Positions 3,161 through 64,000 of a DNA stretch of 64,000 nucleotides are shown one piece after another. Location of the stretch: positions 2,037 through 66,036 of the IMG/VR virus record IMGVR_UViG_3300045747_000167; one strand, 5' to 3'. This DNA comes from a virus. Lineage: Duplodnaviria > Caudoviricetes. How positions within the stretch are numbered: position 1 is the first letter of the stretch; each line of letters begins with the position of its first letter. The position numbers and the translations under genes are program-made. The notes under the pieces are model-generated. The model had not been told where the DNA came from, did no database searches, and was given only the letters and a program-made list of their open reading frames with translations.

Positions 3161-3220
3161 CCGTCCCCCTGCAGCCGTGCCGCACCCATCCTCGCACCAT
3201 CCACGAAGGGGCTGCGGCAA

Positions 3221-5967: not shown

Positions 5968-5969
5968 AG

Positions 5970-6206: not shown

Positions 6207-6424
6207 TGCTCAAGCACCTCTTCACCGGCCTCGACGGGGTCACCTACGACATCGGCAGGGTCGGCGGCGCGCTGTCGTTCCTGGTCGGCCTGGGCCTGGA
6301 GGTCTACAGCGTCGTCTGGCACGTCCAGTTCGACTTCCTGGCCTACGGTGCCGGCATCGCAGCCATGGCAGCCGGCATCGGTGCGCTCCTGAAGCTCAAG
6401 GAGAGTCAGGAACCGAAGCCATGA
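6206..6424 (+). CDS. putative holin (2 TM)
   Basis: TGATG coupling, two hydrophobic helices, charged C-terminus, directly before endolysin. Confidence 0.65.
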   Translation: MLKHLFTGLDGVTYDIGRVGGALSFLVGLGLEVYSVVWHVQFDFLAYGAGIAAMAAGIGALLKLKESQEPKP

Positions 6425-6855: not shown

Positions 6856-7265
6856 CGACAGTCGCGGCCTCCGTGGCCGAGGGCGTCATGTGCTCCGACT
6901 CGCAGTGGAGCGACGGCATCCACAAGGGGCTGATGCGCAAGGTGTTCCGCATCCGCGGCAGCCTGATCGGCGTGGCCGGCGACATGCGGCAGATCGTCGA
7001 ATGGGTGGCTGCATGGAAGGACGACCCGCGGGGCAGGCACAAGCAGAGCATTCACGCCCTCATCCTGAGCGCGGAAGGGCTCTCCACCTGGGACAACACG
7101 CAGCTCTTGATGCCCACCAATGAGCTGTACCAGGCGATCGGATCAGGCGCCGACTTCGCGCTTGGGGCCATGGACCAGGGAGCGAGCTGCCGCGAAGCGG
7201 TACGCATCGCATGCCGACGGGACGCCTCCAGTGGCCCGCCCGTCCGAACCTACAAACTGAGGTGA
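6852..7265 (+). CDS. HslV/proteasome-beta-like Ntn hydrolase
   Basis: N-terminal MTTVA, SDSQ, GVAGD, AIGSGADFALGAM, RRDASSG. Confidence 0.75.
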   Translation: MTTVAASVAEGVMCSDSQWSDGIHKGLMRKVFRIRGSLIGVAGDMRQIVEWVAAWKDDPRGRHKQSIHALILSAEGLSTWDNTQLLMPTNELYQAIGSGADFALGAMDQGASCREAVRIACRRDASSGPPVRTYKLR

Positions 7266-7269
7266 CACT

Positions 7270-8487
7270 TTGGCCGCAAAACCGACCCCACAGAGCCTGC
7301 TGCTGCAAGCAGTGCGAACCCTCGAAGAGTGCGGCGGCAATGCGTCCGCAGCGGCCAAGGCGCTCAGCATCCCGCGGGCGACCCTGCAGTGCCGGATCCA
7401 GGCCGCACAACTGGCCAACATAACAGCCGAGACGAGCGTACCAAGTGATGCCAGTCGCATCCGCGATCTGGAGTCTCAACTGCGCGAAGCGCGTCAGGAG
7501 ACCCTGGACGCAGAATACGTCAAGTCGAAGATTCTGCACCTGTCTGAACTCGAGCCAAAAGTCCCAGACTGGACTATTCGTCCTGTAAAGTCCTACAGCT
7601 TCACGGGCGTGCCGACGCTGTTCTGCTCCGACCTGCACTGGGGCGAGATCGTCGACCCACGCCAGATCGGCGGCGTGAACACCTACAACATGGCCATCGC
7701 GCGTGACCGTCTGCGCACCATGGTCGATGTTGCATGCGATCTGCTGTTCAACCACATAGCCCAACCCAGGTATCCAGGCATCGTCCTGGCGCTGGGCGGT
7801 GACATGGTGACGGGCGACATCCATGAGGAACTGTCAGCTACCAATGAAAAGGAGATCATGCCGGTCGTGCTTGACCTATGGAGCAGCCTGGCATGGGTCA
7901 TCGAGACGCTGGCCGACAAGTTCGGCCATGTCTTCGTGCCATGCGTGAGTGGCAACCATGGCCGGAACACTCACAAGATCCGCGCCAAGGGGCGCAACTT
8001 CACGAGCTTCGACTGGCTCCTGTACCAGTTCTTGGCCAAGAGATTCGAGGCCGACAGGCGGGTCCAGTTCCAGATCCCTGATGGGTCTGATGCGCTGTAC
8101 TCGATCTACGGTCACCGGTTCCTGCTGACGCACGGGGACCAGTTCCGCTCTGGCGGGGACAGCATGATCGGAGCCCTTGGGCCGCTGATTCGCGGGGACC
8201 ACAAGAAGCGGAGCCGGAATAACCAGATCGACCTGGGCTACGACACCATGCTCTGCGGTCACTGGCACCAGCTCATCCAACTCCAACGCCTGATCGTCAA
8301 CGGCAGCCTCAAGGGCTATGACGAATATGCGTACCAGGCAAACTTTGGGTTTGAAGTACCACGACAAGCGCTGTGGATTAACCATCCTCGACACGGCATC
8401 ACGTTCTCCGCACCAGTCAATGTCGACAAGACCAAGCAGGCCAACGAGAAGCCTTCTGAGTGGGTGAGCTGGAAGGAGGCGGCATGA
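7270..8487 (+). CDS. HTH + calcineurin-like metallophosphoesterase
   Basis: N-terminal Fis-like HTH; SDLHWGE, GGDM, GNHGR, THGD, GHWH motifs; TTG start. Confidence 0.85.
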   Translation: MAAKPTPQSLLLQAVRTLEECGGNASAAAKALSIPRATLQCRIQAAQLANITAETSVPSDASRIRDLESQLREARQETLDAEYVKSKILHLSELEPKVPDWTIRPVKSYSFTGVPTLFCSDLHWGEIVDPRQIGGVNTYNMAIARDRLRTMVDVACDLLFNHIAQPRYPGIVLALGGDMVTGDIHEELSATNEKEIMPVVLDLWSSLAWVIETLADKFGHVFVPCVSGNHGRNTHKIRAKGRNFTSFDWLLYQFLAKRFEADRRVQFQIPDGSDALYSIYGHRFLLTHGDQFRSGGDSMIGALGPLIRGDHKKRSRNNQIDLGYDTMLCGHWHQLIQLQRLIVNGSLKGYDEYAYQANFGFEVPRQALWINHPRHGITFSAPVNVDKTKQANEKPSEWVSWKEAA

Positions 8488-16862: not shown

Positions 16863-18167
16863 ATGTCTCAGACCGCAGTTCTCGCTGGCGACGCACTCGC
16901 CAGAAAGCTGTACAGCGTCGCGCTCTTCGCGCAGACGCAGCGTATGCCCGGCTTCGGCCGCCAGCTCACGGGTCCGGTTGCCGACGCCGGCGCCGCCCTC
17001 AGCAAGATCAAAGGCCAGTCGGTCCCCGACATGCCGATCGTGCGCGTGACCGACCTGTCGAAGACCGCGGGTGACACCGTGTCGGTCGACATGTTCGGCG
17101 TGATTGGTGGCGCCCCGATCGCGGGCGACCAGATCGCCGAAGGTCGTGGCGAGAAGCTGACCTCCAGCTCGATGGACATCAGCATCAACCTGCTGACCAA
17201 GGCGGTCGACGCCGGCGGCAAGATGAGCCAGCAGCGCACGCTGCAGGATCTGCGCACCATCGCGATGGCGCAGCTGACGAACTACTTCGCCCGCCTGGAC
17301 GACCAGTCCTCGCTGGTGCACATCGCAGGCGCGCGCGGCTTCCAGACCCAGAACGACTGGGTGATCCCGCTGCAGAGCGACATCACGAACTTCTCGGACG
17401 TGATGGTCAACTCCGTGAAGGCGCCGACCTACAACCGGCACTTCGTGGCAAGCGGCACGACCGTCGTTCGTGGCGGTGCGCAGCTCGGCTCGATCGCGAC
17501 GACCGACGTGTTCAAGCTGGAACACATCGACGCCCTGCGGACCTTCATCGACGAACTGGAGTACCCGCTCCAGCCGGTGCGGATCTCCGATGACCCGGCG
17601 GCCGCCGACGATCCGATGTGGGTCATGTTCGTGTCCCCGCGCCAGTACAGCTCGCTGCTGGCGGCCAGCGGCACGACCGCGCTGCGCACTTTCCAGCAGA
17701 ACGCCTGGAATCGTGCCAGCTACGGCTCGAAGCACCCGCTGTTCCGCGGCGAAGTCGGCATGTGGAACGGCATCCTGGTGAAGAAGCTGAACCGTTCGAT
17801 CCGCTTCATCAGCGGCTCCTCGGCGCAGATCATCACCACGACTGGCGGCATTGGCGTTTCGGCGGGCAATGCCCTGACGGGGACTGAAACCTCGCAGGCC
17901 ATCGCCGGCGCGATCACGACCAGCTATGCGGTCGACCGCGCCATCCTGCTGGGCGCCCAGGCCCTGGCCAACGTCTACGGGAAGAACAAGTCCTCGGACT
18001 ACTACTTCTCATGGCTGGAGCGCCAGTACAACTTCCAGCGCAACCTGGAAGTGGCCGGCGACATGATGGGCGGCAAGGCGAAGCTGCGCTTCAACTACGA
18101 CGAAAGCGGCGTGAAGGTTCCGACCGACCACGGCGTGATCGTTCTGGACACAGCCGTCGCGCTGTAA
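16863..18167 (+). CDS. major capsid protein (N4 gp56/DUF4043 type)
   Basis: AGGAG RBS; DLSKTAGDTV, GGKMSQQRT, HPLFRGEVGMWNGILV, RAILLGAQALA, DHGVIVLDTA. Confidence 0.92.
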   Translation: MSQTAVLAGDALARKLYSVALFAQTQRMPGFGRQLTGPVADAGAALSKIKGQSVPDMPIVRVTDLSKTAGDTVSVDMFGVIGGAPIAGDQIAEGRGEKLTSSSMDISINLLTKAVDAGGKMSQQRTLQDLRTIAMAQLTNYFARLDDQSSLVHIAGARGFQTQNDWVIPLQSDITNFSDVMVNSVKAPTYNRHFVASGTTVVRGGAQLGSIATTDVFKLEHIDALRTFIDELEYPLQPVRISDDPAAADDPMWVMFVSPRQYSSLLAASGTTALRTFQQNAWNRASYGSKHPLFRGEVGMWNGILVKKLNRSIRFISGSSAQIITTTGGIGVSAGNALTGTETSQAIAGAITTSYAVDRAILLGAQALANVYGKNKSSDYYFSWLERQYNFQRNLEVAGDMMGGKAKLRFNYDESGVKVPTDHGVIVLDTAVAL

Positions 18168-41753: not shown

Positions 41754-42196
41754 CAGAGCCCCCTCTCGTGCTGTGCGCGGGCACGCATCCGGCGCAGCTG
41801 GCGCGCCACGTACGAGCGACCCCTCTGGTCAAAGAGGTCGCGCTTATCGAAATCGATCCCGAGACTCACCGGCGCCACGAAGCGCGCAGTGATGGTGCCG
41901 CTGCCATCGAAGGAGTTCGGCGTCACCAGATGCATATCCGGCGGGTCGAACGTCATGCAGGATGCGATGTACGTCCGATAACAGATGCGCCGGCTGATCG
42001 GATCCTCGAACTTCTTGTGGCTCACGCGGGTATTGGTGCGCCGCTTGCGCTCGTCCAGCGCGCCCAGCTTGGCAGCCCGCCGGTCGGACAGCAGGAAATC
42101 GATCGCCAGCTCGGGGCGCGTCTTCTTGTAGCGCGCGGTGGCCAGCCGGACCAGCTCGCGCGTCTCGCTGTCGGGGAGGAAGAGGTGGTTGATCAC
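41753..42196 (-). CDS. hypothetical protein
   Basis: AGGAGG RBS, GTG overlapping the int stop. Confidence 0.55.
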   Translation of the reverse strand: MINHLFLPDSETRELVRLATARYKKTRPELAIDFLLSDRRAAKLGALDERKRRTNTRVSHKKFEDPISRRICYRTYIASCMTFDPPDMHLVTPNSFDGSGTITARFVAPVSLGIDFDKRDLFDQRGRSYVARQLRRMRARAQHERGL

Positions 42197-43431
42197 GACT
42201 GCCTCCTGATTGGTGACGCGGCCTGCCCCGCCGATGTGCAGGATTTGGAGGCGTTCGATTTGTCCGCGTCGTTGACCTTGGTAGATGCCGCGATCCAGGC
42301 CTCCAGGCCGGCGACCTCTCGGTCGTCCTGGTCTCCCTTCACCCAGCGGGCATAGGTCGAGTGGAAGATCTCCACGCTGTGCCCCATCTGCCCGGCGCAC
42401 CAGGCCGCCGTGCGCCCTGCCATCAGCATCATGGTGGCGAAGGTATGGCGGGCGTGGTTCGGGGCCCTGTAGCGGATCCCCAGGCGCTTCAGGCAGGGTG
42501 TCCAGTAGCTGCGCCGGAACGCGCGCTCCTCGAGCCATGCCGTGCCGTAGCGCGGGTCCAGCCAGACGTGCTCGCCGGCCAGCTTGGTGTGCTTGGCCTG
42601 CCGCTGCAGGGCCGCCAGCGACCGGCTGTTCAGGCGCACGTCGCGCGACACGCCAGTCTTGGTCTTGGCCTTGTCGACGCCGCGCACGATGGCCTCGTGG
42701 ATGCGCTGGTAGCCGCTGTTGAAGTCGATCGAGCCCCAGCGCAGGCCCGCCATCTCGGACGTCCGCACGCCGCTGTAGAAGCGCCACTCGACCATGTTGG
42801 CCACGGCCTCGGGGCAGTGCGTACGCATGTCGGCGATGATGGCCTCGGCCTCCTGCATCGAGAACGGGTCGGGCGGCTCGCGCTGCCAGCTGGCGCGCGG
42901 GATCTTGGATGCCGGGTTGTCCTTCAGCGTGCCGTCGGTGACCGCCAGCTGCAGCGCCTCGCGCAGCACGCTGACGTAGTTGTTGATCGTCTTGCCGGAC
43001 AGGCTGGCGCGCGCGCCGAGGGCGAGTAGGAAGTGGCTGTGCTTCAGCCCCCGCACCGGGCGGTCGCCGAGCAGCCCGCCGTCGACCGCGGAGCCCTTCC
43101 AGAACTTGATCGCCGAGGTGTAGCCGGCGCGCGTCGAGTGCTCGATGCGCTGCGTGCTGAGCCAGGTGTCCAGCTGCCGGCCCAGCGTCAGCTCGACGCC
43201 GGTGGTGGCATCGTCGCCCGAGGGGAAGTGCTCCGCGTAGCTGAAGGTGCCGAGGCGGATCATCTCCTTCACATCGTGCGAGAAGCGCTCGGCCCAGCGG
43301 ATGTTCGCCGGCGTCGGCGCCATCGGCCTGCCGTTCGTCATGAGCACCGGGCGGCGGCGCTTCCCCTCGAACAGGAAGTCCAGACGCATGCTGTACTTCC
43401 TGACCTCGACCCCAGAACCTGACCTGCCCAT
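42193..43431 (-). CDS. int: tyrosine integrase with N-terminal arm-binding domain
   Basis: GGAGG RBS; GVRTSE (R), HARHTFA (HxxR), MGHS, TYARW (Y). Confidence 0.93.
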   Translation of the reverse strand: MGRSGSGVEVRKYSMRLDFLFEGKRRRPVLMTNGRPMAPTPANIRWAERFSHDVKEMIRLGTFSYAEHFPSGDDATTGVELTLGRQLDTWLSTQRIEHSTRAGYTSAIKFWKGSAVDGGLLGDRPVRGLKHSHFLLALGARASLSGKTINNYVSVLREALQLAVTDGTLKDNPASKIPRASWQREPPDPFSMQEAEAIIADMRTHCPEAVANMVEWRFYSGVRTSEMAGLRWGSIDFNSGYQRIHEAIVRGVDKAKTKTGVSRDVRLNSRSLAALQRQAKHTKLAGEHVWLDPRYGTAWLEERAFRRSYWTPCLKRLGIRYRAPNHARHTFATMMLMAGRTAAWCAGQMGHSVEIFHSTYARWVKGDQDDREVAGLEAWIAASTKVNDADKSNASKSCTSAGQAASPIRRQS

Positions 43432-45791: not shown

Positions 45792-45869
45792 TGGCAAAGG
45801 AGGGGACTCGAACCCCCGTCACGCCGGTTTACAACGCCTGCGTGGTCCTACCTCTAGACGACCCCCGCC
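45792..45869 (-). tRNA. non-canonical tRNA-like RNA with extended anticodon arm
   Basis: Acceptor GCGGGGG/CCTTTGC, D arm GTCTAGAGGTAGGAC, T arm GGGGG-TTCGAGT-CCCCT; 23-nt anticodon arm. Confidence 0.65.
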
Positions 45870-49398: not shown

Positions 49399-49901
49399 AG
49401 TGTGTTTCCTTGGTGGTTGATTCGCTTTGCGTCGATGTATGCTTGGTGAGCGAGCTGAGGGTCATCAAACACCCCCAAGAACTGCTTCTTTCCGCCGGTG
49501 CAAATGTCGGCTCTGAACCTGTTCCCACCGTGGCGAGACACACCCAGCAGGCCGGTTGAGCTGTTCTTCTTGGCCGCCTTGCGGTTTTGACTGTTCACGC
49601 TTGGAGACACGTCACGCAAGTTGCTCCATCGGTTGTCGCTTCGGTCGCCGTTGATGTGATCGATGTGGGCAGATGGCCAGGCGCCTGTCATCAGGAGCCA
49701 CGCAAGCCGATGCGACGCGTGCTGCTTGTTCTCGAAACTGATGCGCAAGTGGCCATGTCGATCCTTGCTTCCGGCGCGAGAGCCAACCGCAAGATTCCCG
49801 TTGATAGGGTGACCCTTCAGTCGATGGAACTCCCCAGAGATCGGGTCGTACTCGATCGCTTCTCGCAAGCGCACAAGGAATGTTGGCGACTGGGTGATCA
49901 T
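49395..49901 (-). CDS. HNH endonuclease with AP2-like domain
   Basis: HRLAW, IDHINGDRSDNRWSNLR, LGVF...AH.AY. Confidence 0.85.
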   Translation of the reverse strand: MITQSPTFLVRLREAIEYDPISGEFHRLKGHPINGNLAVGSRAGSKDRHGHLRISFENKQHASHRLAWLLMTGAWPSAHIDHINGDRSDNRWSNLRDVSPSVNSQNRKAAKKNSSTGLLGVSRHGGNRFRADICTGGKKQFLGVFDDPQLAHQAYIDAKRINHQGNTL

Positions 49902-50755
49902 CCGAAAATGCCTTCTGCTTCGGGAAGGTCGTTGGTGACCGCGGGCGCGGTCGGGGCGGGTGTCGGCGACACGAACTCGATTGCAGGGGCGCTGTCGCCA
50001 TTGATCCAGCCGCGCAGGTCGGCGCGGTACTTCTCGACCCGGGCGTCGAACTCCATCAGGTCGGTCTTCAGCTCTTCGATGGCGGCCTCGTCGCGCTCGA
50101 TGCGGATGACACGCATCTGCCGGCCCTCGGGCAGGTCAGGCGCCCACAGAACCAGGTCCAGCCAGTCCAGGTGCAGCAGCCAGATCTCCATCACGCACTG
50201 GTGCCAGTACTCGCTGTAGTCACCGAAGATCAGCGCAGTGAACAGCGTGTCGCTGCTCAGCATGGTCTTGACCTCGATGCCGCCACGCTCCTGCTTGCCG
50301 GTGATGTCGACCGAGAAGCACAGCCCGTCCGGAGAGACGCCGAACTTCTTGTCGCCGGTGCGAACGAAGCCGATCTCCTCGACCAGCCGGCCGGTGGCCA
50401 ACTCATAGGCCTGCCGCGCGCGGGGCTCCTCGACCTGACCCTCGCGCATGTCGGCGGTCTGGAAGATGTTGCCGCGCATGCGGCCGTCCTCGCGCGCCCT
50501 GGCCAGATCCATGGCGTAGAGCGCCTGCTTCTGGCTGGGGCCGCCGCGGGTGAACGGGCGCGCCTCCTGCGTCACGTCGCCGGCCTTGTTGCGCTTCTCG
50601 GGCCGAGCCTCCTTGTCGGCCAGCCGGTCGCAGGCATCCTTCGCCTTGCTGCCGGTGCAGACGCCCTTGCGGTCGGCGTGCCACTCCTCGCTGCCTTGCT
50701 TGGCGAACGAGATGTACCACCCGGCCGGCAGGCCGAACAGCTCCTGCGGGCTCAC
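49898..50755 (-). CDS. YqaJ/lambda exonuclease family
   Basis: QGSEEW..R.G..TGS, EPRAR..YE, SPDGL, IEVK, QC. Confidence 0.88.
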   Translation of the reverse strand: MSPQELFGLPAGWYISFAKQGSEEWHADRKGVCTGSKAKDACDRLADKEARPEKRNKAGDVTQEARPFTRGGPSQKQALYAMDLARAREDGRMRGNIFQTADMREGQVEEPRARQAYELATGRLVEEIGFVRTGDKKFGVSPDGLCFSVDITGKQERGGIEVKTMLSSDTLFTALIFGDYSEYWHQCVMEIWLLHLDWLDLVLWAPDLPEGRQMRVIRIERDEAAIEELKTDLMEFDARVEKYRADLRGWINGDSAPAIEFVSPTPAPTAPAVTNDLPEAEGIFG

Positions 50756-51513
50756 TTGGCGGCGCCCTTCAGCTCGGCGCGGCGTGCCTCGACGGCGGCC
50801 TTCAGCTTGTCGTAGGCGGGCCGGTTGTCCAGCGCGGCCAGGGACGTCTTGCCGGTGGTCCAGAGCGCGACCACCGCCTTGTCATCGGCGCACTTGGCCA
50901 ACTGGTCCAGCAGGCCCTTCAGCACCTTGTCGACGGCCTCCTGCGGCACATCATCTGCACCGCCGTCACCATCGTCGTCCTGCTCTTCAGCCGCAAGGCC
51001 CAGGATGGCAGTGGCGCTGTAGCGCTCCAGGTACGCCTTGGTGCTGCCGCGGGCCTGCAGAGCATTGCGTCCAGGGCCGGTGTCCGGCGGGCCGCTCTGC
51101 TGCACGGACTCGCTGTGGCCAGCTGCGTGACGCAGTGTGCATTGCACGGTCATCCAGTCTTTCTCGTCGGCCAGCAGCTTCCAGCTGATCGACAGGCCAT
51201 GTTTGGCCAGGGCGGGCGACGTCACCTTCACGATCTCGGCGAGCGTCAGGTGCTTCTTGCCCTTCAGCGGCCCATCGGTGATCTCTTTGCGCTTCACCAG
51301 TTGGATGGCCTCGGACTTGAAGCCGGCGAACGCAGCGTTGAACAGCTTCTCGGCCTCGTGCTTCTCCCACTGGATCTGCATCTCCATGAGCTGCTGCAGG
51401 CGCTCCAGCGGAGCCTGGGACTGGACCGCCAGCGCGACGAGGTCGGCCGGCGTGGTGCGAGCAACAGCCAACGGCTGCTGCGGAATCGGGGTGAGTTCGT
51501 TCATTTGAACCAT
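50752..51513 (-). CDS. ERF family ssDNA-annealing protein
   Basis: L.KHGLS, LRH..GHSE, QARGST..Y..RY...A.LGL, DDDG. Confidence 0.85.
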   Translation of the reverse strand: MVQMNELTPIPQQPLAVARTTPADLVALAVQSQAPLERLQQLMEMQIQWEKHEAEKLFNAAFAGFKSEAIQLVKRKEITDGPLKGKKHLTLAEIVKVTSPALAKHGLSISWKLLADEKDWMTVQCTLRHAAGHSESVQQSGPPDTGPGRNALQARGSTKAYLERYSATAILGLAAEEQDDDGDGGADDVPQEAVDKVLKGLLDQLAKCADDKAVVALWTTGKTSLAALDNRPAYDKLKAAVEARRAELKGAAK

Positions 51514-51981: not shown

Positions 51982-52383
51982 ATGATCAAGTCAACCGTGC
52001 CGAAGAGGCACAACATCTCCTTGGATGGAGGCGTCCTACTGGTGTCTGCGGGCGGCGTCCTGACGTCGGCGGCGATGGAGTCGCTGGGCGATGCGGTGGC
52101 ATCGATACCGCACGCGGCACTGGTCATCGACTACGCCAAAGGCACATCGGCGGCACCGCCTATTTCGGTGGTGCGCCACATGCGGGCCCGGCCGCGGATC
52201 CCCATGGGGATCGTGGTGCCTCCTGCGTTGGTGCAGGCCGCAACTGCAGAGGCCATGCAGATGGCCCTGCTCGAAGGGTCCGTGAGGCGGGTGTTCCTAC
52301 AGCCCCGCGACGCCCACCCTTGGGCGCTGCGTCAGCTTGTGGTCAGCGAGATGCAACAGGAATGGCGGCGGGCTCAGGGTTGA
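51982..52383 (+). CDS. hypothetical protein convergent with repressor
   Basis: 133 aa ORF; 3' end overlaps the repressor 3' end. Confidence 0.45.
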   Translation: MIKSTVPKRHNISLDGGVLLVSAGGVLTSAAMESLGDAVASIPHAALVIDYAKGTSAAPPISVVRHMRARPRIPMGIVVPPALVQAATAEAMQMALLEGSVRRVFLQPRDAHPWALRQLVVSEMQQEWRRAQG

Positions 52384-52726
52384 GCATGGCCTGAGCCACC
52401 GCGTAGAGCGCGGCCTGCTTGCTGGGGTGCAGCGTCTCGAATGCCCTGGCCAGTTCGACTGCCATCGGCGAGAAGGTGGCCGGCATCGGGCCAGCGCCCG
52501 GGTGGAAGCCGGGCTGCAGCAGTTGCCAGGGCTGCACGTTGAATGCCTTCGCCAGGCCATCTAGCTTGTCGACGCTGGGCGCGTTCTTCATCGCCAAGAC
52601 ACGACCGACGGTGGTCTGGTCGAAGCCGGCGCGCTCAGCGATCTCGGCCTGGGACAGCTGGTGGTCGGCGGCATTCCTGAGCAGGCCGACGTTCTCGGCC
52701 AATACCTGTTGAGCTGTCTTGATCAT
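52343..52726 (-). CDS. XRE-family repressor (no S24 domain)
   Basis: LSQAEIAERAGFDQTTVGRV...PSVDKLDGLAKAF.V.PWQLL; divergent from Cro. Confidence 0.85.
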   Translation of the reverse strand: MIKTAQQVLAENVGLLRNAADHQLSQAEIAERAGFDQTTVGRVLAMKNAPSVDKLDGLAKAFNVQPWQLLQPGFHPGAGPMPATFSPMAVELARAFETLHPSKQAALYAVAQAMLNPEPAAIPVASR

Positions 52727-56880: not shown

Positions 56881-57128
56881 GGTCGATCTCGATGCCTCAG
56901 GTGGACGCCTATGCACCAGCGCCTGAGACACGACACCCCTACTGGGCGGGCAGACGCGGAGGCAGGGGAGGTGGGTGGCGAAGGCAGCGCCCCAGCGTCG
57001 AACGGCTACCGGGTCATGGACGCCGACGGGTGACATGTGAAGGCAGATCTCGGAGGGCTAGGTCTGCCTTCCTCGGGGTGATAGAGGTTGTAGGTCTTCC
57101 AGAGAGTGCATTGATCAAAGGAGTAGGT

Positions 57129-58167: not shown

Positions 58168-59153
58168 ACCGCACCACCCCGATGAAGCGCACCGGGTTCA
58201 AGCGCACACCGCGCCGGCCCGAGAAGCGCATGGACGACTACACGCCGAAGCCGCGCGAGACCGCAGTGGCCAGCGCCGCACCGGACAGCACCTTCGCGCC
58301 GCAGCCGAAGTTCGTTCATCTGCGCGACGAGCGCTTCCGCGACATGTGCCGCGACATGCGCTGCCAGCACTGTGGAGCCTGGGGCGCACATGCAGGCGTG
58401 ACCTGGGCGCATAGCAACCAGAGCAAACACGGCAAATCGATGTCCTGCAAGGCCAGCGATCAGTACGTGGCCGCGATGTGCTCGCTCTGCCATAGGGAGC
58501 TGGACCAAGGAAAGTTGTGGACCCAGGAGGAGAAGGTCGAGATCTGGGACGAAGCGCACAGGCGCACGGTCATGACGGCGCTCAGGAGGGGCACTTGGCC
58601 AAGCGGCGTGCCCGTACCCCTGGACGAGTACAGAAAACGCCAGGAACACCCTGTTCCGGCTGAACTGGAGGTGGTTGCGATGAGAGGACTTCGTGGTCGA
58701 CAACTGGTCGACAAGGACTACTACGACGTGCTGGCCAGGAACGATGGCTGGATGTCGGCCCAGGACGTATCGAGGCAGCTGGGCGTGTCGTGGTACATCT
58801 GCAGTTTCGGGCTGCGTCGGATGGTCGAAGGCGGGACGGTCGAGGAGGATGTGATTGACGTCGCCGGAGCGGCGCGCAGCGCAGAACACTCGCGTGTCTA
58901 TCGTGCGCGCCCACTGCCGGGCGAGTCGAGGCGGGTCGAGTCTGACCTGCCGGCGTGGATGGCACCTCAAGCAGTCGTGAACTGCGGGGTGGCCAGACGC
59001 ATCAATGGGACCGCAGGGATGCTGCGGTGGGAGCGCCAGGAATCGGACGATCAGTCCGACAGCCAGGGCGCCCCGGGCGGGCCGGAGAACGGCGCCGCGA
59101 GCACGACCGAGATGTCCTCCGGCTTGGTGCCGGTGGGTTCAGTCGAGGGGTAG
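58164..59153 (+). CDS. HNH-like Zn nuclease domain (DUF968/DUF1364-like) fused to wHTH
   Basis: CQHCG..AHSN...GK....KASD......C..CH..LD; internal GGAGG + ATG 58680. Confidence 0.65.
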   Translation: MNRTTPMKRTGFKRTPRRPEKRMDDYTPKPRETAVASAAPDSTFAPQPKFVHLRDERFRDMCRDMRCQHCGAWGAHAGVTWAHSNQSKHGKSMSCKASDQYVAAMCSLCHRELDQGKLWTQEEKVEIWDEAHRRTVMTALRRGTWPSGVPVPLDEYRKRQEHPVPAELEVVAMRGLRGRQLVDKDYYDVLARNDGWMSAQDVSRQLGVSWYICSFGLRRMVEGGTVEEDVIDVAGAARSAEHSRVYRARPLPGESRRVESDLPAWMAPQAVVNCGVARRINGTAGMLRWERQESDDQSDSQGAPGGPENGAASTTEMSSGLVPVGSVEG

Positions 59154-59326
59154 GAGCGAACGCCCAGCGCCAGGGCAGCGCAGGCGAGTTCCACGGTGCG
59201 CGGGATCGGGTACTTGCCCCGGACCCACGCGTACCACCCAGGCCTGGAGATGTCGAGCATCTCGCAGGCCTTGGTGACCGAGATGCCGAGGTGCTCACGC
59301 CAGCGAGTGAGTTGGGCGGGTGTCAA
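59051..59326 (-). CDS. XRE-like HTH protein
   Basis: AGGAGG + TTG; TP.QL..WR..LG.S...A..ML...G.YPIPRTVELACAAL. Confidence 0.7.
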   Translation of the reverse strand: MTPAQLTRWREHLGISVTKACEMLDISRPGWYAWVRGKYPIPRTVELACAALALGVRSYPSTEPTGTKPEDISVVLAAPFSGPPGAPWLSD

Positions 59327-59508
59327 TGCGGCACCTCCTTCAGCTCCTCGACAGGCTCGTCGCACTTGTCGCAGAAGTCGTAGCGTGAGCCGAAGTAGTA
59401 GAACAACTCGCCCTTGCTGTTCTCCCAGGCGAGGGCCGAGGTCACGCCCTGCTCGTGCTTGCACTCACGGCAGCGCATGCGCAGCGTGATGTTGGCGTGC
59501 TTGGTCAC
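59323..59508 (-). CDS. small Zn-ribbon protein
   Basis: CREC...CDKC; coupled. Confidence 0.55.
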   Translation of the reverse strand: MTKHANITLRMRCRECKHEQGVTSALAWENSKGELFYYFGSRYDFCDKCDEPVEELKEVPH

Positions 59509-59951
59509 GACGTGGCCTCGCTCTTCAGCGACTCCAGCGCGAGGATGTACTTCTCGGCCAGCCGCACCGCCTGGGCCGGCGGCAGCTTCTCCAGGCGCGC
59601 CGGATCCATGTTGTCCGCGATGTCTGCGCGCTTGATCAGCACGGCATCAGCCGACTGCTTCAGCCACCCCATGTAGATCGGGTACGGGTCTGTCCTGCGC
59701 TTCGTGAGCAGCAGCACCAGGGAGATGGCCGCCGCCGGCACGCCGCGCTTGAAGAGACCCTCGGCGGTCGTCTTCTCGTCCTCGATGCTGTCGTGCAGCA
59801 GCGCGGCGATGATCTGGCTGGCGTGGCCGCCGGCCTGGGCGACGCGCCATGCGACCCGCGTCAGGTGGCCGATGTACGGCTGGCCCGCCTTGTCGACTTG
59901 GCCGGCGTGCAACTGCTCGGCCAGGGTGTATGCCTCGTGGTAGTTCATCAT
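59505..59951 (-). CDS. HD-domain small alarmone hydrolase (Mesh1/SAH-like)
   Basis: AEQLHAGQVDKAGQPYIGH, AALLHDSIED, LLTK, IKRADIADN. Confidence 0.85.
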   Translation of the reverse strand: MMNYHEAYTLAEQLHAGQVDKAGQPYIGHLTRVAWRVAQAGGHASQIIAALLHDSIEDEKTTAEGLFKRGVPAAAISLVLLLTKRRTDPYPIYMGWLKQSADAVLIKRADIADNMDPARLEKLPPAQAVRLAEKYILALESLKSEATS

Positions 59952-59960
59952 GCGATCCTT

Positions 59961-60275
59961 TCAGAGCTGGATGCCGGCACGTTCGAACAGCGCTTCGACC
60001 TCGGCATCGATCAGCAACGCGGTGAGGCGCGCCGGGATCAGCGACGAGTCGAGCATGCGCAGCGCGCGCGCCAACTGGGTGTAGGTCGGCAGGCCGACGT
60101 TTTGGGCCCAGGCGTCGGCGATGGCGATCGCCTCACGCGAAGGCGACAACGCCGGCTTCGTCTGCTGCTTCTCGGACGGCTGCACCTTGCGGACGTAGTC
60201 GCCGAGCGTGACCTCGCCCAGCGTCTGCTGGCCTGGGGGGTTCGTGGTGGCCTTGTGGGGCGGAATGTGGAACAT
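59961..60275 (-). CDS. hypothetical protein
   Basis: GGAG RBS downstream of hairpin element. Confidence 0.6.
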   Translation of the reverse strand: MFHIPPHKATTNPPGQQTLGEVTLGDYVRKVQPSEKQQTKPALSPSREAIAIADAWAQNVGLPTYTQLARALRMLDSSLIPARLTALLIDAEVEALFERAGIQL

Positions 60276-60347
60276 CTCAATCTCCGGGTTAGGTGGGTCG
60301 GGATGACGCCACTCCCGAGCACCGCACGCGGTGCAAGGGGCTGAGGT

Positions 60348-60587
60348 CTAGCCGCGATGCGCGAGACGGTTGCGCAGCACGTTGCGGCGCTTCAGGGCGG
60401 CGCGCTTCGTGCGGGCATAGCTGCCCTTGTTGCGGGTGCTGCCGTGGGTGGCAGCGGGCGCACTGGTCTTGGCCGGCTTGAGGGCCGGAGAGGCCACTGC
60501 GGTGACGGCCGAGGAGGCCAGGGCGATGCCGACGGCCAGCAGCGCACGGATGCGGGTGAGGCCGATGTCGAGGTGACTGCGTTGCAT
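60348..60587 (-). CDS. small basic protein with hydrophobic N-region
   Basis: AAGGAG RBS; KRAALKRRN tail. Confidence 0.6.
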   Translation of the reverse strand: MQRSHLDIGLTRIRALLAVGIALASSAVTAVASPALKPAKTSAPAATHGSTRNKGSYARTKRAALKRRNVLRNRLAHRG

Positions 60588-60661
60588 GCTGCAACTCCTT
60601 CGTGATGTGTCGTCGGGATGACTCCACTCCAAGGCGCACCGAGATGCGCGATGGGCTGGGG

Positions 60662-61468
60662 TCAGGGCTTCGCCGGCAGGCGCCCGTGGGCGCGCGCGAT
60701 ACCCAGGATCAGTTCCTTGTGGGCGCGCCAGAAGCGCAGCGCCTCGCGACCGTCCATCGCAGCGATGGCGGCGTCGTCAAAGGCCTCCCATTCAGCAAGC
60801 GCGTGGTCTTGGCAGCCGATGGAAATCTGCGTGTCGGTGATCGTCACGTCCCAGGTCAGGCCGCCGATGAAGATGGGGGTCTTTGATGCGTTGCCGTAGA
60901 CCCAGGCGTTGCCGTAGACCCGGGCGTTGCCGAAGACCCGGGCGTTGCCGTAGACCTGGGCGTTGCCGAAGACCTGGGCGTCGCCGTAGACCTGGGCGTT
61001 GCCGAAGACCCGGGCGTTGCCGTAGACCTGGGCGTTGCCGAAGACCCAGGCGTTGCCGTAGACCCAGGCGTTGCCGAAGACCCGGGCGTTGCCGTAGACC
61101 TGGGCGTCGCCGTAGACCTGGGCGTTGCCGAAGACCCGGGCGTTGCCGAAGACCCGGGCGTTGCCGTAGACCCGGGCGTCGCCGAAGACCTGGGCGTCGC
61201 CGTAGACCTGGGCGTTGTCGTAGACCTGGGCGTCGCCGTAGACCTGGGCGTTGCCGTAGACCTGGGCGTCGCCGTAGACCCAGGCGTTGCCGTAGACCCA
61301 GGCGTTGCCGTAGACCGACAGGCTGGCCTCAGCCTCGACATAGCCGCCAATGTCTCCCGCTGCGACGTGCAAGGCCGCGATAGCAACCAGTGCTCGGATG
61401 CGCTTGACCGTGCGCCCTGGCGCGATGGTGATCTCGTCGCCGGGCACGAATTCGTACTTGGTGTTCAC
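60662..61468 (-). CDS. hexapeptide-repeat (beta-helix) protein
   Basis: AGGAG + GTG; RIRAL...GD.GG.VE...L, then 24 V(Y/F)G(N/D)A(W/Q/R) repeats. Confidence 0.85.
   Translation of the reverse strand: MNTKYEFVPGDEITIAPGRTVKRIRALVAIAALHVAAGDIGGYVEAEASLSVYGNAWVYGNAWVYGDAQVYGNAQVYGDAQVYDNAQVYGDAQVFGDARVYGNARVFGNARVFGNAQVYGDAQVYGNARVFGNAWVYGNAWVFGNAQVYGNARVFGNAQVYGDAQVFGNAQVYGNARVFGNARVYGNAWVYGNASKTPIFIGGLTWDVTITDTQISIGCQDHALAEWEAFDDAAIAAMDGREALRFWRAHKELILGIARAHGRLPAKP
60884..61315 (-). repeat. 18-bp coding tandem repeat, 24 units
   Basis: GTC T(A/T)C GGC (A/G)AC GCC (T/C)(G/A)G units. Confidence 0.95.
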
Positions 61469-61540
61469 TTGGTTCTCCTGAGAAGGTGTCGTCGGGATGA
61501 CGCCACTCGCAAGCCCACCGAGGTGGGCAAGCGGCTGGGG

Positions 61541-61813
61541 TCACTCTTCGATGTAGGTCTCTTCGACTTGCACGTAGAACATGCAGCTACCGTCGCCGGC
61601 ACCGAAGGACGAGAACGCGCCCTGCTGCGCCTCGGTGAACTCGGCCAGCACGTTGTCGATCTCATCGGCCACGCGCGAGTCGTTGCGGTACTCGCTGATC
61701 ACTTCGAGGGCGGCCTTGACTGCGCCGTCGCGGGACTGGAAGACGCGCGGCGATGCGGTCGGGCTGGACGCTTCGCCGGTCTCGCTCAAGACCCAGACGT
61801 TGTTGTCGGACAT
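61541..61813 (-). CDS. acidic hypothetical protein
   Basis: AGGAG RBS between two hairpin elements. Confidence 0.65.
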   Translation of the reverse strand: MSDNNVWVLSETGEASSPTASPRVFQSRDGAVKAALEVISEYRNDSRVADEIDNVLAEFTEAQQGAFSSFGAGDGSCMFYVQVEETYIEE

Positions 61814-61884
61814 GGTTGCTCCTGGTTGCGTGAGATCGGAATGACCGCACTCCAAAGGCCCGCACGCGGGCCGATGGGCTGGGG

Positions 61885-62832
61885 TCAGAAGAATCGGTTG
61901 GCGCAGATCGGCCCGATGCCGTTCGCCACGGACACCGGGTCGGTCAGTTCGCGGTTGCAGATGCAGCACGAGCCGGTGCGCAGCCCATAGGCCTTGCTGG
62001 CCGCCTCGGGGTCAGCCATCAACTCGATGACCTGGGCGCGGACCTCTGCAGTGCAGTCCCTGCTGTTGAGGAACTTGCCCTGGAAGATCTTGCCCAGGTA
62101 CACGTCGTTGTCGCTCTTGACGTACAGCGCGCCAGCGTTCGCGCTGTTGGGGCCAGCCATCGAGATGACGTACCCATCGAAGTGCAGCTTCGGCCACTTC
62201 AGGCCACTGGCCTTGGCCTTCTCGAAGGCTGCGAACAGCCGCTCGGTCTGGATGGCAGGCGCGGCGTCGACCTTGGCCTGTTGCACCAGGGCAGCGGCGG
62301 CCTTCTCGGCTTCGAACACCTTGTCGCGCTCCATGCAGCGCTGGCAGGCAGCGAGCTGGCCCGGGGTCAGCGTGCCGTGGTCATCGAGGGCCACTGCCAT
62401 GCTGCCCGCGAAGTCGAACCGGTGCGCCGTGCGCTGGATCCAGTCGTGGACTTCGGCATGCTCGGCCAGAAACGCCGCACGCAGCGCCTGGGTGGCCGAT
62501 GCCTTGCGGTTCTGCACCGCAGCGCGCGCCTTGGTGCGGTCCTCGGTTGAGGTCTTGAAGGTCTTGAAGCCGGCGCCCTTGCATGCGAAGCAAGAGCCCA
62601 GCGAGCGACCGTAGAAGGAGTTGAAGCGCCCGGTGCCCTTGCACTTGGCGCACGGCTCCTTGAACTCGCTCGGCGTGGCCGGCGGCGTCACGAAGCGCTG
62701 AGCGGCAACCCGCTCGGTGGTCACGGTGGCCGGCGCATCGGCGTCGAAGTCGATGTCGTTGGCCATGCTGGCCCAGCCCTCGTCATCCTCACGGACGCGA
62801 GCGCCGCCGACACCCCTGTAGGGAAGGTTCAT
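61885..62832 (-). CDS. Zn-finger + DUF6011-like protein
   Basis: C..C.G.G...C..C.G.G; C-terminal CCICNRELTDPVSVANGIGPICA. Confidence 0.78.
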   Translation of the reverse strand: MNLPYRGVGGARVREDDEGWASMANDIDFDADAPATVTTERVAAQRFVTPPATPSEFKEPCAKCKGTGRFNSFYGRSLGSCFACKGAGFKTFKTSTEDRTKARAAVQNRKASATQALRAAFLAEHAEVHDWIQRTAHRFDFAGSMAVALDDHGTLTPGQLAACQRCMERDKVFEAEKAAAALVQQAKVDAAPAIQTERLFAAFEKAKASGLKWPKLHFDGYVISMAGPNSANAGALYVKSDNDVYLGKIFQGKFLNSRDCTAEVRAQVIELMADPEAASKAYGLRTGSCCICNRELTDPVSVANGIGPICANRFF

Positions 62833-62901
62833 GGTGGTCTCCGGTGAATGTGCGGGGATCGCACTCCAGACCCCTGCACGCAGGGGAATGGGCTGAGATC
62901 A

Positions 62902-63315
62902 CTACTCCTCGTTGAACCCGCGCAGCCAGTGCGCGTGCAACCACGACGCGACCGGGTATGGGTTCGAGCCGATCAAGTGGCCTCGATAGGCCGCCTGATC
63001 GCCTTCCTGCCATGCAGCTTGGCGCGCCGCTGCGCGCGCCTTTGGGACGTCGGTGAATGCCTCGCCGGAGGCCTCGCGCGCAGCCAGCTTGTCGGCGCAG
63101 CGCGAGCACTCTTCGTCGATGAACAGGTCCATGCCCCAACCATGGCGAGGCGAGAGCCCGCAGAGCGCGTTGCCGCGCTTCAGCGGTTCCCCGTCTTCGC
63201 TCACCGGCACGGCGTGCAGGCGCCAGCCAACCTGCCCGGCGTCTGCGCCGTGCGTGTGTGCCGGCTTGTATGGGTTCGGCAGCGTGGTGAACCACCCGAT
63301 GCTGGTGCTATTCAT
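62902..63315 (-). CDS. hypothetical protein with C-terminal Rmf-like motif
   Basis: AWQEG..A..G....NPY.......WLRGF. Confidence 0.55.
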   Translation of the reverse strand: MNSTSIGWFTTLPNPYKPAHTHGADAGQVGWRLHAVPVSEDGEPLKRGNALCGLSPRHGWGMDLFIDEECSRCADKLAAREASGEAFTDVPKARAAARQAAWQEGDQAAYRGHLIGSNPYPVASWLHAHWLRGFNEE

Positions 63316-63535
63316 CGCAGTCGCGCTCCAGGCCCGCCATGTCAACCGCGTCGCGAACGACCTGCGTCTGGGGGCCACGCGGGAAACCTTCGGTGCTGGG
63401 GTAGTCGTGGATGCCGATGCTTGCGAGGTAGCGGCGCAGCTCGCGCGCCGCGCCCCGGATCACGCGCCGCCGGTGGCCTGGGTGGCACTGGTTGGCGCGG
63501 TCGATGAGGCGCTGCTGCGCCTGGGTGAGTGTCAT
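63308..63535 (-). CDS. hypothetical protein
   Basis: AGGAG RBS after hairpin element. Confidence 0.6.
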   Translation of the reverse strand: MTLTQAQQRLIDRANQCHPGHRRRVIRGAARELRRYLASIGIHDYPSTEGFPRGPQTQVVRDAVDMAGLERDCDE

Positions 63536-63600
63536 TGGGTTCTCCTGTGCAGTGCAGATCGCACTCGCGAGCCCTGGCGAACCAGGGCAGGCGGCTGAGA

Positions 63601-63792
63601 TCAGTGCTGGTCTGCGTCGTCGACCGTCGGCGTGAAGCCGCAGTACGAGCGCATGTCGTCGAGGTCCGACAGGTCGTCGATGACCTCGTTGAAGTCGCCT
63701 CGCGTCTCCTGCATGCCGCGCTGCGTGAGCAGCACTTCGGCAGAGGCGAGGCGCTTGCTGGCTGAGCGCTCGGGGTGCTTGATGGCGTGCAT
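63601..63792 (-). CDS. hypothetical protein
   Basis: GAGG RBS; stop is the first codon of a hairpin element. Confidence 0.55.
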   Translation of the reverse strand: MHAIKHPERSASKRLASAEVLLTQRGMQETRGDFNEVIDDLSDLDDMRSYCGFTPTVDDADQH

Positions 63793-63802
63793 GGCGGGCC
63801 CC

Positions 63803-64000
63803 TCAGCAGATGAGGTCGAGACCGGCCAGGACGTCATCCGCATCGCTGCGGAGCGTGTCGGCGTGGGAGCGCTCACCGAGCATGTCGGCGAGCTGCGCGG
63901 CGTGGCGCAGGCTACGAGCCAGCGCGGTGCGCGATGCGTGCGCCGTCTCCCAGAGCCGGCCGCCCATCGGGCTGATGCCGTGCTGGCCTGCGGGGTGAAC
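63803..64000 (-). CDS. hypothetical protein, 5'-truncated
   Basis: Open frame running off the window end. Confidence 0.45.
   Translation of the reverse strand, partial: VHPAGQHGISPMGGRLWETAHASRTALARSLRHAAQLADMLGERSHADTLRSDADDVLAGLDLIC

Follow-up and report, generated by a model that had tools for sequence, protein, structure and literature searches.

What is served by folded spacers set one after another between the accessory genes of a phage, and is it the messenger RNA or the DNA that makes use of them? The question is raised by a 64,000-nt window (positions 2,037–66,036 of the IMG/VR record IMGVR_UViG_3300045747_000167, Caudoviricetes) from a temperate phage whose accessory genes are joined by six such spacers, each of about 70 bases, and whose gene complement includes an ERF annealase and a YqaJ exonuclease. 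The genes concerned form a minus-strand block with the replication genes on one side and the contig end on the other (Table 1).

Table 1. Co-directional accessory-gene array and its hairpin elements in window coordinates; bit scores are those of covariance model R1 run with filters off.
Feature	Coordinates	Strand	Stop codon	Module	Bits	Remarks
Accessory-gene array	59323..64000	-				co-directional, element-punctuated, runs off contig end
Gene	59323-59508	-				array
HD phosphohydrolase gene	59505-59951	-				array
Gene	59961-60275	-				array
Element 1 hairpin	60304..60350	-	TAG 60348-60350	60276-60350	71.7	next gene from 60275
Gene upstream of element 1	60348-60587	-				array
Element 2 hairpin	60619..60664	-	TGA 60662-60664	60588-60664	70.2	stop of beta-solenoid gene
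YdcK beta-solenoid gene, upstream of element 2	60662-61468	-				array
Element 3 hairpin	61498..61543	-	TGA 61541-61543	61469-61543	75.2	next start GTG 61468
Gene upstream of element 3	61541-61813	-				array
Element 4 hairpin	61842..61887	-	TGA 61885-61887	61814-61887	74.0	stop of DUF6011 gene
DUF6011 / phrog_4046 gene, upstream of element 4	61885-62832	-				array
Element 5 hairpin	62857..62901	-	TAG 62902-62904 (gene)	62833-62904	67.4	gene stop followed by element TGA 62899-62901
Gene upstream of element 5	62902-63315	-				array
Gene	63308-63535	-				array
Element 6 hairpin	63557..63603	-	TGA 63601-63603	63536-63603	57.6	7-bp apical stem
Gene upstream of element 6	63601-63792	-				array
Gene	63803-end	-				array

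The six elements are rod hairpins of 45–47 nt on the minus (coding) strand between 60304 and 63603, and their coordinates agree with the places and strand given by the first-pass annotation. All six gaps of 65–74 nt in the array hold an element, and the array's three junctions that are at most 10 nt long or overlapping hold none. The 5' edge of each hairpin is the upstream stop codon itself or follows it immediately; the claim that every element starts at a stop codon held for five copies, one of which (copy 1) starts at TAG rather than TGA, and failed for copy 5, where the gene's own TAG precedes the TGA of the element. The 3' edge had been described as ending just before the next ribosome-binding site, which places it too close, since about 8–17 nt separate it from the Shine-Dalgarno sequence and 21–31 nt from the next start codon.

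Each copy, folded alone, gives the same rod, with energies from -22.8 to -31.1 kcal/mol and z-scores from -2.3 to -6.2. From bottom to top the rod is composed of an outer stem of 4–5 bp, a 1x1 mismatch, 2–3 bp, a 2x2 loop, 3 bp, a second 2x2 loop, 6–7 bp, and a tetraloop; the 16–17 pairs, the two 2x2 loops, and the mismatch amount to about 21 stacked layers. In a plain MAFFT alignment of the six copies 92.2% of the cells are paired, versus 30–41% when the 3' partners are slid, compensatory changes occur on both sides in 8 of 17 pairs, and none of 500 shuffles reached the observed values. The covariation quoted earlier for the middle helix (CCA:TGG, CGC:GCG, CCC:GGG) was found in full, as was the switch of the outer stem between GAC:GTC and GATC:GATC.

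The family extends to 76 copies, 67 of them distinct, from IMG/VR, metagenome contigs, and one Roseateles prophage. Compensatory pairs rise to 13 of 17 among 34 distinct copies and to 15 of 17 among the 67, with about 92% of the cells paired versus 25–48% in the slid controls. The proposal that structure is selected over sequence is well supported, also across this much wider set. In the 67 distinct copies the base of the fold reads TGAYC ... GRTCA, the apical loop shows no conservation, and the internal-loop core (AGCC on the 5' side, G-R-GUG on the 3' side) is near-invariant while every stem varies, although part of this invariance is due to ascertainment, because alignments A3 and A4 were built by fitting to the model and the seeds derived from patterns containing the conserved core. 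This is offset by the fact that most copies were recovered by the model only, as in the sources L255 (seven model hits versus one pattern match) and L256 (five versus one). The "pyrimidine" 2x2 loop, which had been regarded as fixed, varies in the wider family. The helix columns hold 33 G-U pairs versus 17 A-C mismatches, about 2:1, an excess that modestly favours the sense strand as the one that folds.

A near-invariant core amid variable stems suggests that the hairpin has a specific reader and is not passive, and this observation bears on the simplest interpretation, namely an uncleaved mRNA hairpin acting as a barrier to 3' exonucleases and as a structural insulator, as REP hairpins do in Escherichia coli operons. 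In such a role the rod would keep the ribosome-binding site from pairing with GC-rich coding sequence and would leave no naked RNA past the stop codon; the stable fold beginning exactly at the stop codon, the absence of a terminator tail, and the Shine-Dalgarno regions, mostly unpaired when the elements are folded in context, are all consistent with it. In the same context folds the outer stem was lost from the minimum-energy structure in one of the six copies, element 1. The passive hairpin leaves unexplained both the near-invariant unpaired nucleotides and the constancy with which two 2x2 loops and one 1x1 mismatch recur, and is judged unlikely.

The family is uncatalogued and recurs in other uncultured phages. 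A strict pattern matched six times in the forward and never in the reverse direction over the whole 66,036-bp record, with one match for the backwards control. With model R1, filters off, the six copies are followed by a match of 17.8 bits on the opposite strand of one of them, the best unrelated match in the window reaches 13.9 bits, and no seventh copy was detected there. Rfam 15 gave no match on any element, whether the window was searched at the gathering score or 60200–63700 at E<=5; the covariance-model check proposed in the first-pass annotation therefore ended with a family absent from Rfam 15 and with covariation upheld in the wider alignment.

The element family is confined essentially to phages, which carry 2–7 copies each. 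Among 185,579 species-representative bacterial genomes, in which 73 pattern-bearing stretches were checked, a convincing copy was present in only one; it lies in a prophage operon and adjoins an annealase and an exonuclease. The positive genome, a 5.4-Mb MAG, gave a single match when 150 of its 5757 first-look candidates were scored. A RecT-like annealase is among the products of the Roseateles prophage. REP/BIME sequences are similar in being hairpins that follow stop codons inside operons and can stabilise the upstream mRNA. REPs number tens to hundreds on each host chromosome, in contrast to this phage-confined family with its single copy in the one positive bacterial genome.

The registration with genes seen in the window is general. 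A stop codon occupies one fixed position of the element in 62 of 70 distinct contexts (60 TGA, one TAG, one TAA) and is in frame with the upstream frame of best GC3 in 59 of the 62; a start codon with a Shine-Dalgarno sequence follows, at a median stop-to-start distance of 68.5 nt (n = 56), and the orientation is always that of the genes. The spacing from hairpin to Shine-Dalgarno and start varies among contexts, which implies no tight mechanical link to initiation, and the leaders are unlike between copies, with GGAG-type Shine-Dalgarno sequences in varied surroundings.

Conservation covers the entire stop-to-start module between cistrons: sequence identity begins at the TGA and extends to the next ATG, Shine-Dalgarno included. 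Cross-contig pairs with elements at least 90% identical were compared for their flanks, and in the 28 measurable pairs neither flank was shared in 16, only the upstream one in two, only the downstream one in one, and both in nine, so that at least one flank was unrelated in 19. In particular, at least four different contigs carry copies that are 100% identical over about 52–75 nt and have unrelated genes around them. Between the related phages L128 and L100 each indel boundary coincides exactly with a stop codon, with the start of the element, or with a leader repeat, and after one shared gene end the two carry different intergenic modules, the break falling at the stop codon; in a related phage lineage an indel is likewise delimited by a 23-nt leader repeat that has no hairpin and is an equally good junction. 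The window and its relative L116 have the replication genes and the HD gene in common, and the genes between their elements are all different. The "cassette-like architecture" is accordingly borne out as a pattern of evolution, with gene gains, losses, and replacements among relatives falling precisely at module edges, and the comparison with relatives that had been suggested gave the L128/L100 indels and the 16 pairs sharing neither flank. Since the module is the only sequence common to otherwise unrelated genes and phages, it would offer phage recombination the homology for exchanging entire genes, and comparison of relatives shows it doubling as what is probably a homologous-recombination joint.

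Two other explanations of this mosaic were weighed. A selfish or semi-autonomous miniature palindromic repeat of the REP/MITE kind, spreading among phages and settling after stop codons, would account for the identical copies between unrelated genes; nevertheless, the low copy number in phages and in the 5.4-Mb host genome and the constant gene orientation speak against it, no element-associated transposase or target duplication was found in the sequences examined, and a stop-to-start unit including the Shine-Dalgarno sequence fits gene replacement round a fixed linker better than insertion. This origin is regarded as very improbable. Still less credible is the integron-like mechanism of the first-pass annotation, a site-specific single-stranded DNA recombination site at which a recombinase cuts and rejoins the folded strand and so moves single-gene cassettes. 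The rod, with its conserved base, internal loops, and variable tip, recalls a folded attC in outline, both are structured, strand-specific elements ending promoterless single genes, gene content changes at element borders, and the phage encodes an integrase besides the ERF annealase. That integrase (42193–43431), the only one, is of the lambda type by its domains Arm-DNA-bind_2 and Phage_integrase and lies about 17 kb from the array, and no integron-type integrase adjoins the elements. The outer stem TGAYC/GRTCA of the 67 distinct copies is unlike the inverse-core and core sites of attC. An attC site is consistently linked to the upstream gene, the cassette being an ORF plus its own downstream site; the element, in contrast, is tied to the upstream flank in two pairs, to the downstream one in one, and to neither in 16. 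The junctions fall at both module edges, stop codon and start codon, with no single fixed crossover inside the hairpin, and the hairpin-free leader repeat bounds an indel as well, so that this claim is not supported.

Signals for transcription were sought in 59000–64000, where neither an intrinsic-terminator-like nor a sigma-70-like promoter site was found. The sequence after the stems is C/G-rich, and a T/U tract follows none of the six copies, in agreement with the earlier remark on missing U tracts; the element is thus neither a terminator nor a promoter by these signs. The intergenic location and the GC-rich stem could still suggest an attenuator or terminator for the host RNA polymerase, overridden by a phage antiterminator, in analogy with the PeSLs of T4-type phages, which according to PMC2839356 are AT-rich and combine a strong sigma-70 promoter with an efficiently terminating stem-loop. 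Such a role is highly improbable, as the scan revealed no promoter after the elements that could restart transcription and conserved internal loops are no hallmark of terminators. The likeness to PeSL cassettes concerns their layout, described in PMC2839356 and PMC4122927 as an intergenic module that starts with the upstream stop, includes a stem-loop, and reaches the next Shine-Dalgarno and start, concentrated among small accessory genes and serving as a point of homologous exchange where relatives swap whole genes, as the modules here do in the comparisons above. The difference lies in the absence of a promoter or terminator signature from 59000–64000 and in a hairpin that covaries around conserved unpaired bases.

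The closest functional parallel may be phage T7, whose early mRNAs are processed by RNase III cutting between genes. The T7 early intergenic regions fold into irregular hairpins of similar size, which we take to be the RNase III processing sites R0.3, R0.5, R1, R1.1, and R1.3 of Dunn and Studier, these sites being absent from the annotation of the T7 record NC_001604. In both systems irregular rods of about two turns with internal loops stand between co-directional phage genes and, if the elements here are co-transcribed with their genes as is assumed, punctuate a polycistronic message; the T7 hairpins at 0.4/0.5 and 0.7/1 likewise start with the upstream UGA and stop about 20–30 nt short of the next start. 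Model R1 found no match at E<=1 in T7 positions 400–8200, and the likeness is therefore one of architecture and not of homology. Unlike the T7 sites, the elements occur in phages of high-GC hosts, some of them temperate, and have two 2x2 loops with the invariant AGCC/G-R-GUG core, and their cleavage is only predicted.

An RNA-processing or protein-binding role would fit all of the anatomy, and by analogy with T7 the reading preferred here, tentatively and with clearly less than even confidence, is an RNA punctuation module of the sense strand, that is, an RNase III-type site serving processing and stabilisation, with recombination homology as a side effect. A phage lineage of Burkholderiales-type hosts would link accessory genes that are unrelated to one another in a single co-directional transcription unit by means of a standard intercistronic module of about 65–75 nt (stop codon, rod hairpin, short spacer, Shine-Dalgarno, start codon). 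The element would work in the sense-strand mRNA, where a conserved host factor for processing double-stranded RNA, RNase III being the best candidate, would cut in the lower rod and release single-gene messages from the polycistronic RNA; of these, the upstream one would retain a protective 3' hairpin starting at its own stop codon, and the downstream one would gain a short unstructured leader. The homology of the modules would then be used by phage recombination for whole-gene exchange, giving the cassette-like mosaic. In E. coli RNase III cuts are enriched in intergenic regions within transcripts, according to PMC6212723.

The near-invariant core introduces a complication for RNase III as the reader. 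The fixed stop-codon registration and a core conserved over 67 distinct copies with all stems variable would also be expected of an operator, in which an RNA-binding protein dedicated to the element, encoded by the phage or supplied by the host but distinct from RNase III, controls the translation, coupling, or stability of the cistrons, for example as a repressor or activator reading the AGCC/G-R-GUG loop. Bacterial RNase III is not known to require any particular internal-loop sequence, and the core may thus point to a different, dedicated reader. Against the operator stand the variable spacing to the Shine-Dalgarno and start codon and the apical loop, a common site of protein contact that is not conserved here; in addition, no protein family is common to more than five of the 35 element-bearing sources, a weak argument since these are mostly fragments. 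A comparable case is offered by the SAS/ESAS repeats of Cluster K mycobacteriophages, proposed as factor-binding sites in PMC3203893. As described there, these are phage-specific imperfect inverted repeats with a variable spacer, in one orientation just upstream of the starts of some non-structural genes of different families, and almost absent from the host genome (PMC3203893). They differ in sequence, host phylum, and geometry, SAS having 17-bp arms and a 13-bp RBS motif, whereas no SAS-like 13-mer is common to the element leaders when set against that text, in which registration with an upstream stop is not described (PMC3203893). On balance the operator is considered rather unlikely.

Beyond the preferred punctuation module, a broader proposal is advanced with considerable doubt: the elements may be plug-and-socket modules for phage accessory genes, in which an RNA linker read by a host factor is combined with homology for annealases, in effect an integrase-free integron. 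If so, a structured linker read by a conserved host factor would secure the expression of any gene placed behind it, and the same linker of about 70 nt would give annealases such as ERF and RecT the homology to move single genes between unrelated phages. The invariant AGCC/G-R-GUG loop would in that case be what a putative reader binds, and the family would represent a new class of phage RNA elements.

From 59323 to the end of the window all genes lie on the minus strand, and the block contains six intergenic gaps of 65-74 nt, each with one copy of a hairpin element; no copy is found in its three remaining junctions, where the neighboring genes overlap or are separated by 10 nt or less. The source record of the window is a 66,036-bp IMG/VR sequence classed as linear and 78% complete, of which bases 2037-66036 are covered. 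On the coding strand, the 5' side of the element is composed of T-GA-Y-C-Y-CAGCC, a 3-bp helix, a 2x2 loop, and an apical stem of 6-7 bp closed by a tetraloop; the 3' side consists of the return strands followed by GAGTG-NN-RTCA. When folded singly, all six copies form the same rod; the folding energy lies between -22.8 and -31.1 kcal/mol and the z-score between -2.3 and -6.2. In a plain MAFFT alignment of the six copies, 92.2% of the pairing cells are paired versus 30-41% with slid partners, and compensatory changes on both sides occur in 8 of the 17 pairs; these values were reached by none of 500 shuffles. R1, the covariance model built from the six copies, scores them at 57.6-75.2 bits with filters off, and its next match is the opposite strand of one copy (17.8 bits), the best unrelated site reaching 13.9 bits. 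These scores, together with the fold and covariation statistics, indicate that the covarying hairpins described in the first-pass annotation are real and that their copies are confined to the minus-strand gene block.

Each element had also been described as starting at a stop codon and ending just before the next ribosome-binding site. The first part is correct for four copies, in which the element's own TGA is the upstream stop; in copy 1 the upstream stop is TAG, and ahead of copy 5 the gene has a TAG stop of its own, immediately followed in frame by the element's TGA. The second part is approximate, the base of the hairpin being located 21-31 nt ahead of the next start codon. A scan of 59000-64000 detected neither sigma-70-like promoters nor terminator-like sites; since no terminator-like site was detected in this region, a role of the rod as an attenuator or terminator is very improbable. 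Other readings were dropped: a sigma-54-like or sigma-70-like promoter, on inspection by eye and on the promoter scan; UGA read-through or selenocysteine-type recoding, the next gene being in frame in 3/6 window copies, which is near chance, and the apical loops being variable; and mimicry of CRISPR repeats, every copy having a different apical stem.

The window phage is temperate, and its main genes are listed in the table. The array and the rightward replication genes are convergent, and synteny with the contigs L116 and L072 places the array between the modules for replication and packaging. When R1 is run over the window, no copy is found in the classical leftward recombination operon. The array also includes several small ORFs without family, and a search for related loci with the DUF6011 protein as query found no close relatives.

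Positions and annotation of features in the window
Feature	Position	Strand	Remark
Large terminase	1481-2785		
Portal	4009-5967		
Major head protein	16863-18167		
ORF of 2900 aa	31348-40050	+	
Arm-type integrase	42193-43431		
tRNA match, borderline	45793-45868	-	
YqaJ exonuclease	49898-50755		
ERF annealase	50752-51297		
HTH repressor	52343-52726		
Betaproteobacteria-1 RNA	56894-57014	+	full-length match
HD phosphohydrolase (HD_4, phrog_990)	59505-59951	-	closes array
YdcK-type beta-solenoid protein	60662-61468	-	array gene
DUF6011 / phrog_4046 protein	61885-62832		array gene

The beta-solenoid gene is mostly made up of about 25 tandem 18-nt units encoding the hexapeptide [YF]G[ND]A[WQR]V, and its product matches the YdcK beta-solenoid family (PF18836, E=1.3e-35; also phrog_7964). 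A stretch 77% identical to this gene is present in Acidovorax phage AP1 (L125, 3000-3900), where the gene is preceded not by the element but by a GC hairpin of ordinary type that has a T tract; in the AP1 record an ORF is annotated on the strand opposite to the beta-solenoid gene. Elsewhere in the window, the Betaproteobacteria-1 RNA (Rfam RF02932; 74.6 bits versus a gathering score of 49.4) separates the primase gene from the replication-module gene that comes after it, and the leftward operon contains the tRNA match (30.3 bits versus a gathering score of 29), some 2.4 kb away from the integrase gene. In the single ORF of 2900 aa, the matches to giant phage proteins fall in the 900 C-terminal residues and include a DarB-like antirestriction family (phrog_14770, 1.8e-108; phrog_10089, 2.5e-42).

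Further copies were searched for in IMG/VR and in metagenomes by pattern scans and then with the covariance model; the first loose pattern scan of IMG/VR gave mostly chance occurrences among the matches listed, and was followed by stricter patterns and the model. Arrays of 3-5 copies are present in the IMG/VR contigs L020, L116, L128, and L100, and other contigs contain one or two; among these, two copies each are present in a 67-kb genome that is complete and in one of 47 kb that is 95% complete. The metagenome scan yielded 49 stretches, with 47 model hits in them at E<=0.001. The densest array, in L255, has seven copies in 2.5 kb, and L256 and L274 have five each; the metagenome copies were found mostly by the model rather than by pattern, as in L255 (seven model hits versus one pattern match). 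The 76 hits with E<=1e-5, corresponding to 67 distinct sequences, were combined in an alignment fitted to the model in a way that favors its structure; in it, both-side changes are found in 15 of the 17 pairs and 91.7% of the cells pair versus 25-48% with slid partners, values again reached by 0/500 shuffles; that this signal is not an artefact of the fitting is argued from the six-copy MAFFT result and from the slid controls. All stems vary, and the near-fixed positions are the T-GA at the 5' edge, AGCC in the 5' strand, and G-R-GUG in the 3' strand, the last two surrounding the lower 2x2 loop; the constancy of these positions is in part due to how the seeds were found. The earlier proposal that structure is kept while the stems change therefore extends to the wider family.

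A protein family of about 360 aa is encoded in L020 (12078-13160), L100 (9588-10679), L128 (7118-8209), and L256 (2906-4006), the L020 member beginning MNELSLHRQWASRPADERF; an element stands directly upstream of the gene in L020, L100, and L128, and the upstream match in L256 is weak (25.2 bits). L140, a 3.2-kb contig binned in a Thermoplasmatales archaeon MAG, has pattern matches at 2013-2064 and 2541-2587 and no model hit at E<=0.001; these could be due to chance, to a divergent relative, or to a misbinned phage fragment.

No already characterised family was matched by the elements in Rfam 15, whether the whole window was searched at the gathering score or 60200-63700 at E<=5. With one element as blastn query, the 50,697 records of cultured phages yielded short chance matches only, R1 has no match in Acidovorax phage AP1 or Curvibacter phage TJ1, and the main texts of the literature searched provided analogues and no description of this element. 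Among bacterial and archaeal genomes (185,579 species, one genome per species), 73 stretches were retrieved, about the chance expectation, of which one is convincing, with 52.6 bits in a Roseateles MAG; membership was not assigned to four weaker hits of 25-30 bits, from Planctomycetota and an actinomycete MAG. The Planctomycetota contigs L176 (1081-1143), L192 (1088-1150), and L168 (5613-5675) score 28-30 bits at about 53% GC and may be distant relatives of the family or copies of a hairpin repeat unrelated to it. The Roseateles MAG (5.4 Mb) has one match overall, with 150 of its 5757 first-look candidates scored; this copy sits in a prophage, between two small genes, and is closely followed by genes for a RecT-like annealase and an exonuclease. 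The near-absence from species genomes and the single prophage copy indicate that the element is not a host REP-type repeat, and the broader reading of a mobile repeat is held improbable. The hosts of these phages are likely Burkholderiales; the window also has the Betaproteobacteria-1 RNA. A shared partner protein was not found, no family being present in more than 5 of the 35 element-bearing sources, most of which are fragments.

The gene context of the element was surveyed in 70 distinct cases, 3 of which were too short to test. A stop codon occupies the same aligned position in 62 of them (60 TGA, one TAG, and one TAA), and in 59/62 it falls in the upstream reading frame that has the highest GC3; five contexts have no stop at that column, and in three of these a TAG is found one base earlier. 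The downstream start with a Shine-Dalgarno sequence is located at a median of 68.5 nt from the stop (range 35-110, n=56), and none was found in six contexts. The element is thus always oriented with the genes and locked to the stop codon, the distance to the next start being loose. In the helix columns, G-U pairs outnumber A-C mismatches (33 versus 17), a modest sign that the sense strand may be the one that folds.

The genes that surround the element are exchanged at its edges. The window and L116 have the helicase, primase, and HD genes in common and none of the genes between elements, the HD phosphohydrolase (6635-7084 in L116, 45% identity) being the only shared array-side protein. Elements at least 90% identical were found in 43 cross-contig pairs, some of them involving duplicate contigs such as L259/L277; in the 28 measurable pairs, both flanks are shared in 9, the upstream flank only in 2, the downstream flank only in 1, and neither in 16. 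At least four contigs carry, between genes that are unrelated on either side, elements of one group that are 100% identical throughout; the identity begins at the TGA and in several cases extends over the spacer and Shine-Dalgarno sequence as far as the ATG, which indicates that the conserved unit is the whole intercistronic module. L128 and L100 differ by an 800-nt two-gene indel that has a stop codon at one edge and the first base of the element's TGA at the other. One gene end common to both phages precedes the element in the first and a hairpin module of another type in the second, or the reverse. A further, single-gene indel of 127 nt lies between direct repeats of a hairpin-free 23-nt leader. 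A second intergenic hairpin module, unrelated to the element and about 80 nt long from TAA stop to ATG (L128, reverse complement 3717-3795; L100, 8715-8795), alternates with it in the same arrays, and the 23-nt leader, which contains a Shine-Dalgarno sequence, is repeated ahead of at least six genes of L128 and L100.

Relatives therefore do change their gene content at the element boundaries, as the first-pass annotation had anticipated; the integron-like mechanism that it had offered for this shuffling fares poorly, since junctions occur at both module edges, linkage is found either way, leader repeats also serve as junctions, and no integron-type integrase is present. A site-specific ssDNA recombination site would account for exchange at the element, but both-edge junctions and either-way linkage are unlike attC-type recombination and make it highly unlikely. 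The same features, with the leader-repeat junctions, argue for homologous exchange at shared linkers, a process shown for the PeSL cassettes of T4-type phages in the work described in PMC2839356 and PMC4122927. The PeSL has a promoter and terminator, whereas neither signature was seen for the element in the scan of 59000-64000.

Strand polarity, stop-codon registration, and covarying stems around invariant unpaired bases, without a promoter or terminator signature and with conservation before and behind unrelated genes, point to a function in mRNA with a specific reader. The closest working model is the early operon of T7, whose 0.4/0.5 and 0.7/1 hairpins, when folded here, likewise begin at the UGA of the upstream gene, contain internal loops, and are similar in length to the element, with which they share no homology; we take them to be RNase III sites, although the RefSeq record has no such annotation. 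On the basis of this likeness and of the intergenic cuts of the E. coli enzyme, an RNase III-type processing of the array mRNA, in which the 3' hairpins would stabilise the released messages, is tentatively placed first, at less than an even chance. According to PMC6212723, the cuts made by E. coli RNase III show an enrichment in the intergenic parts of transcripts. The main point against RNase III is the invariant loop, which in turn favors a different reader; a dedicated protein operator is considered rather unlikely, and a passive barrier or insulator between the genes less likely again. The Cluster K ESAS repeats, in the account of PMC3203893, are likewise intergenic signals of phages, and the element lacks their SAS motif. 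It is of the same kind as the T7 RNase III sites, the PeSLs, and the ESAS repeats, and a member of none.

Accessory regions hold most unknown phage genes, including anti-defence genes, and to our knowledge their expression and exchange are poorly understood outside T4 and T7. The element described here is compact and strongly covarying, has an invariant loop, is absent from Rfam, and occurs in many uncultured phages of high-GC Proteobacteria; it marks exact gene-swap points and could provide a searchable signature for accessory-gene islands as well as a defined RNA target for finding its reader, be it RNase III or something new. Should processing or insulation by the element prove efficient and self-contained, it might also be used as an operon-building part for high-GC hosts. 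After the PeSLs, it would represent a second independent case of conserved intergenic regulatory modules driving modular gene shuffling.
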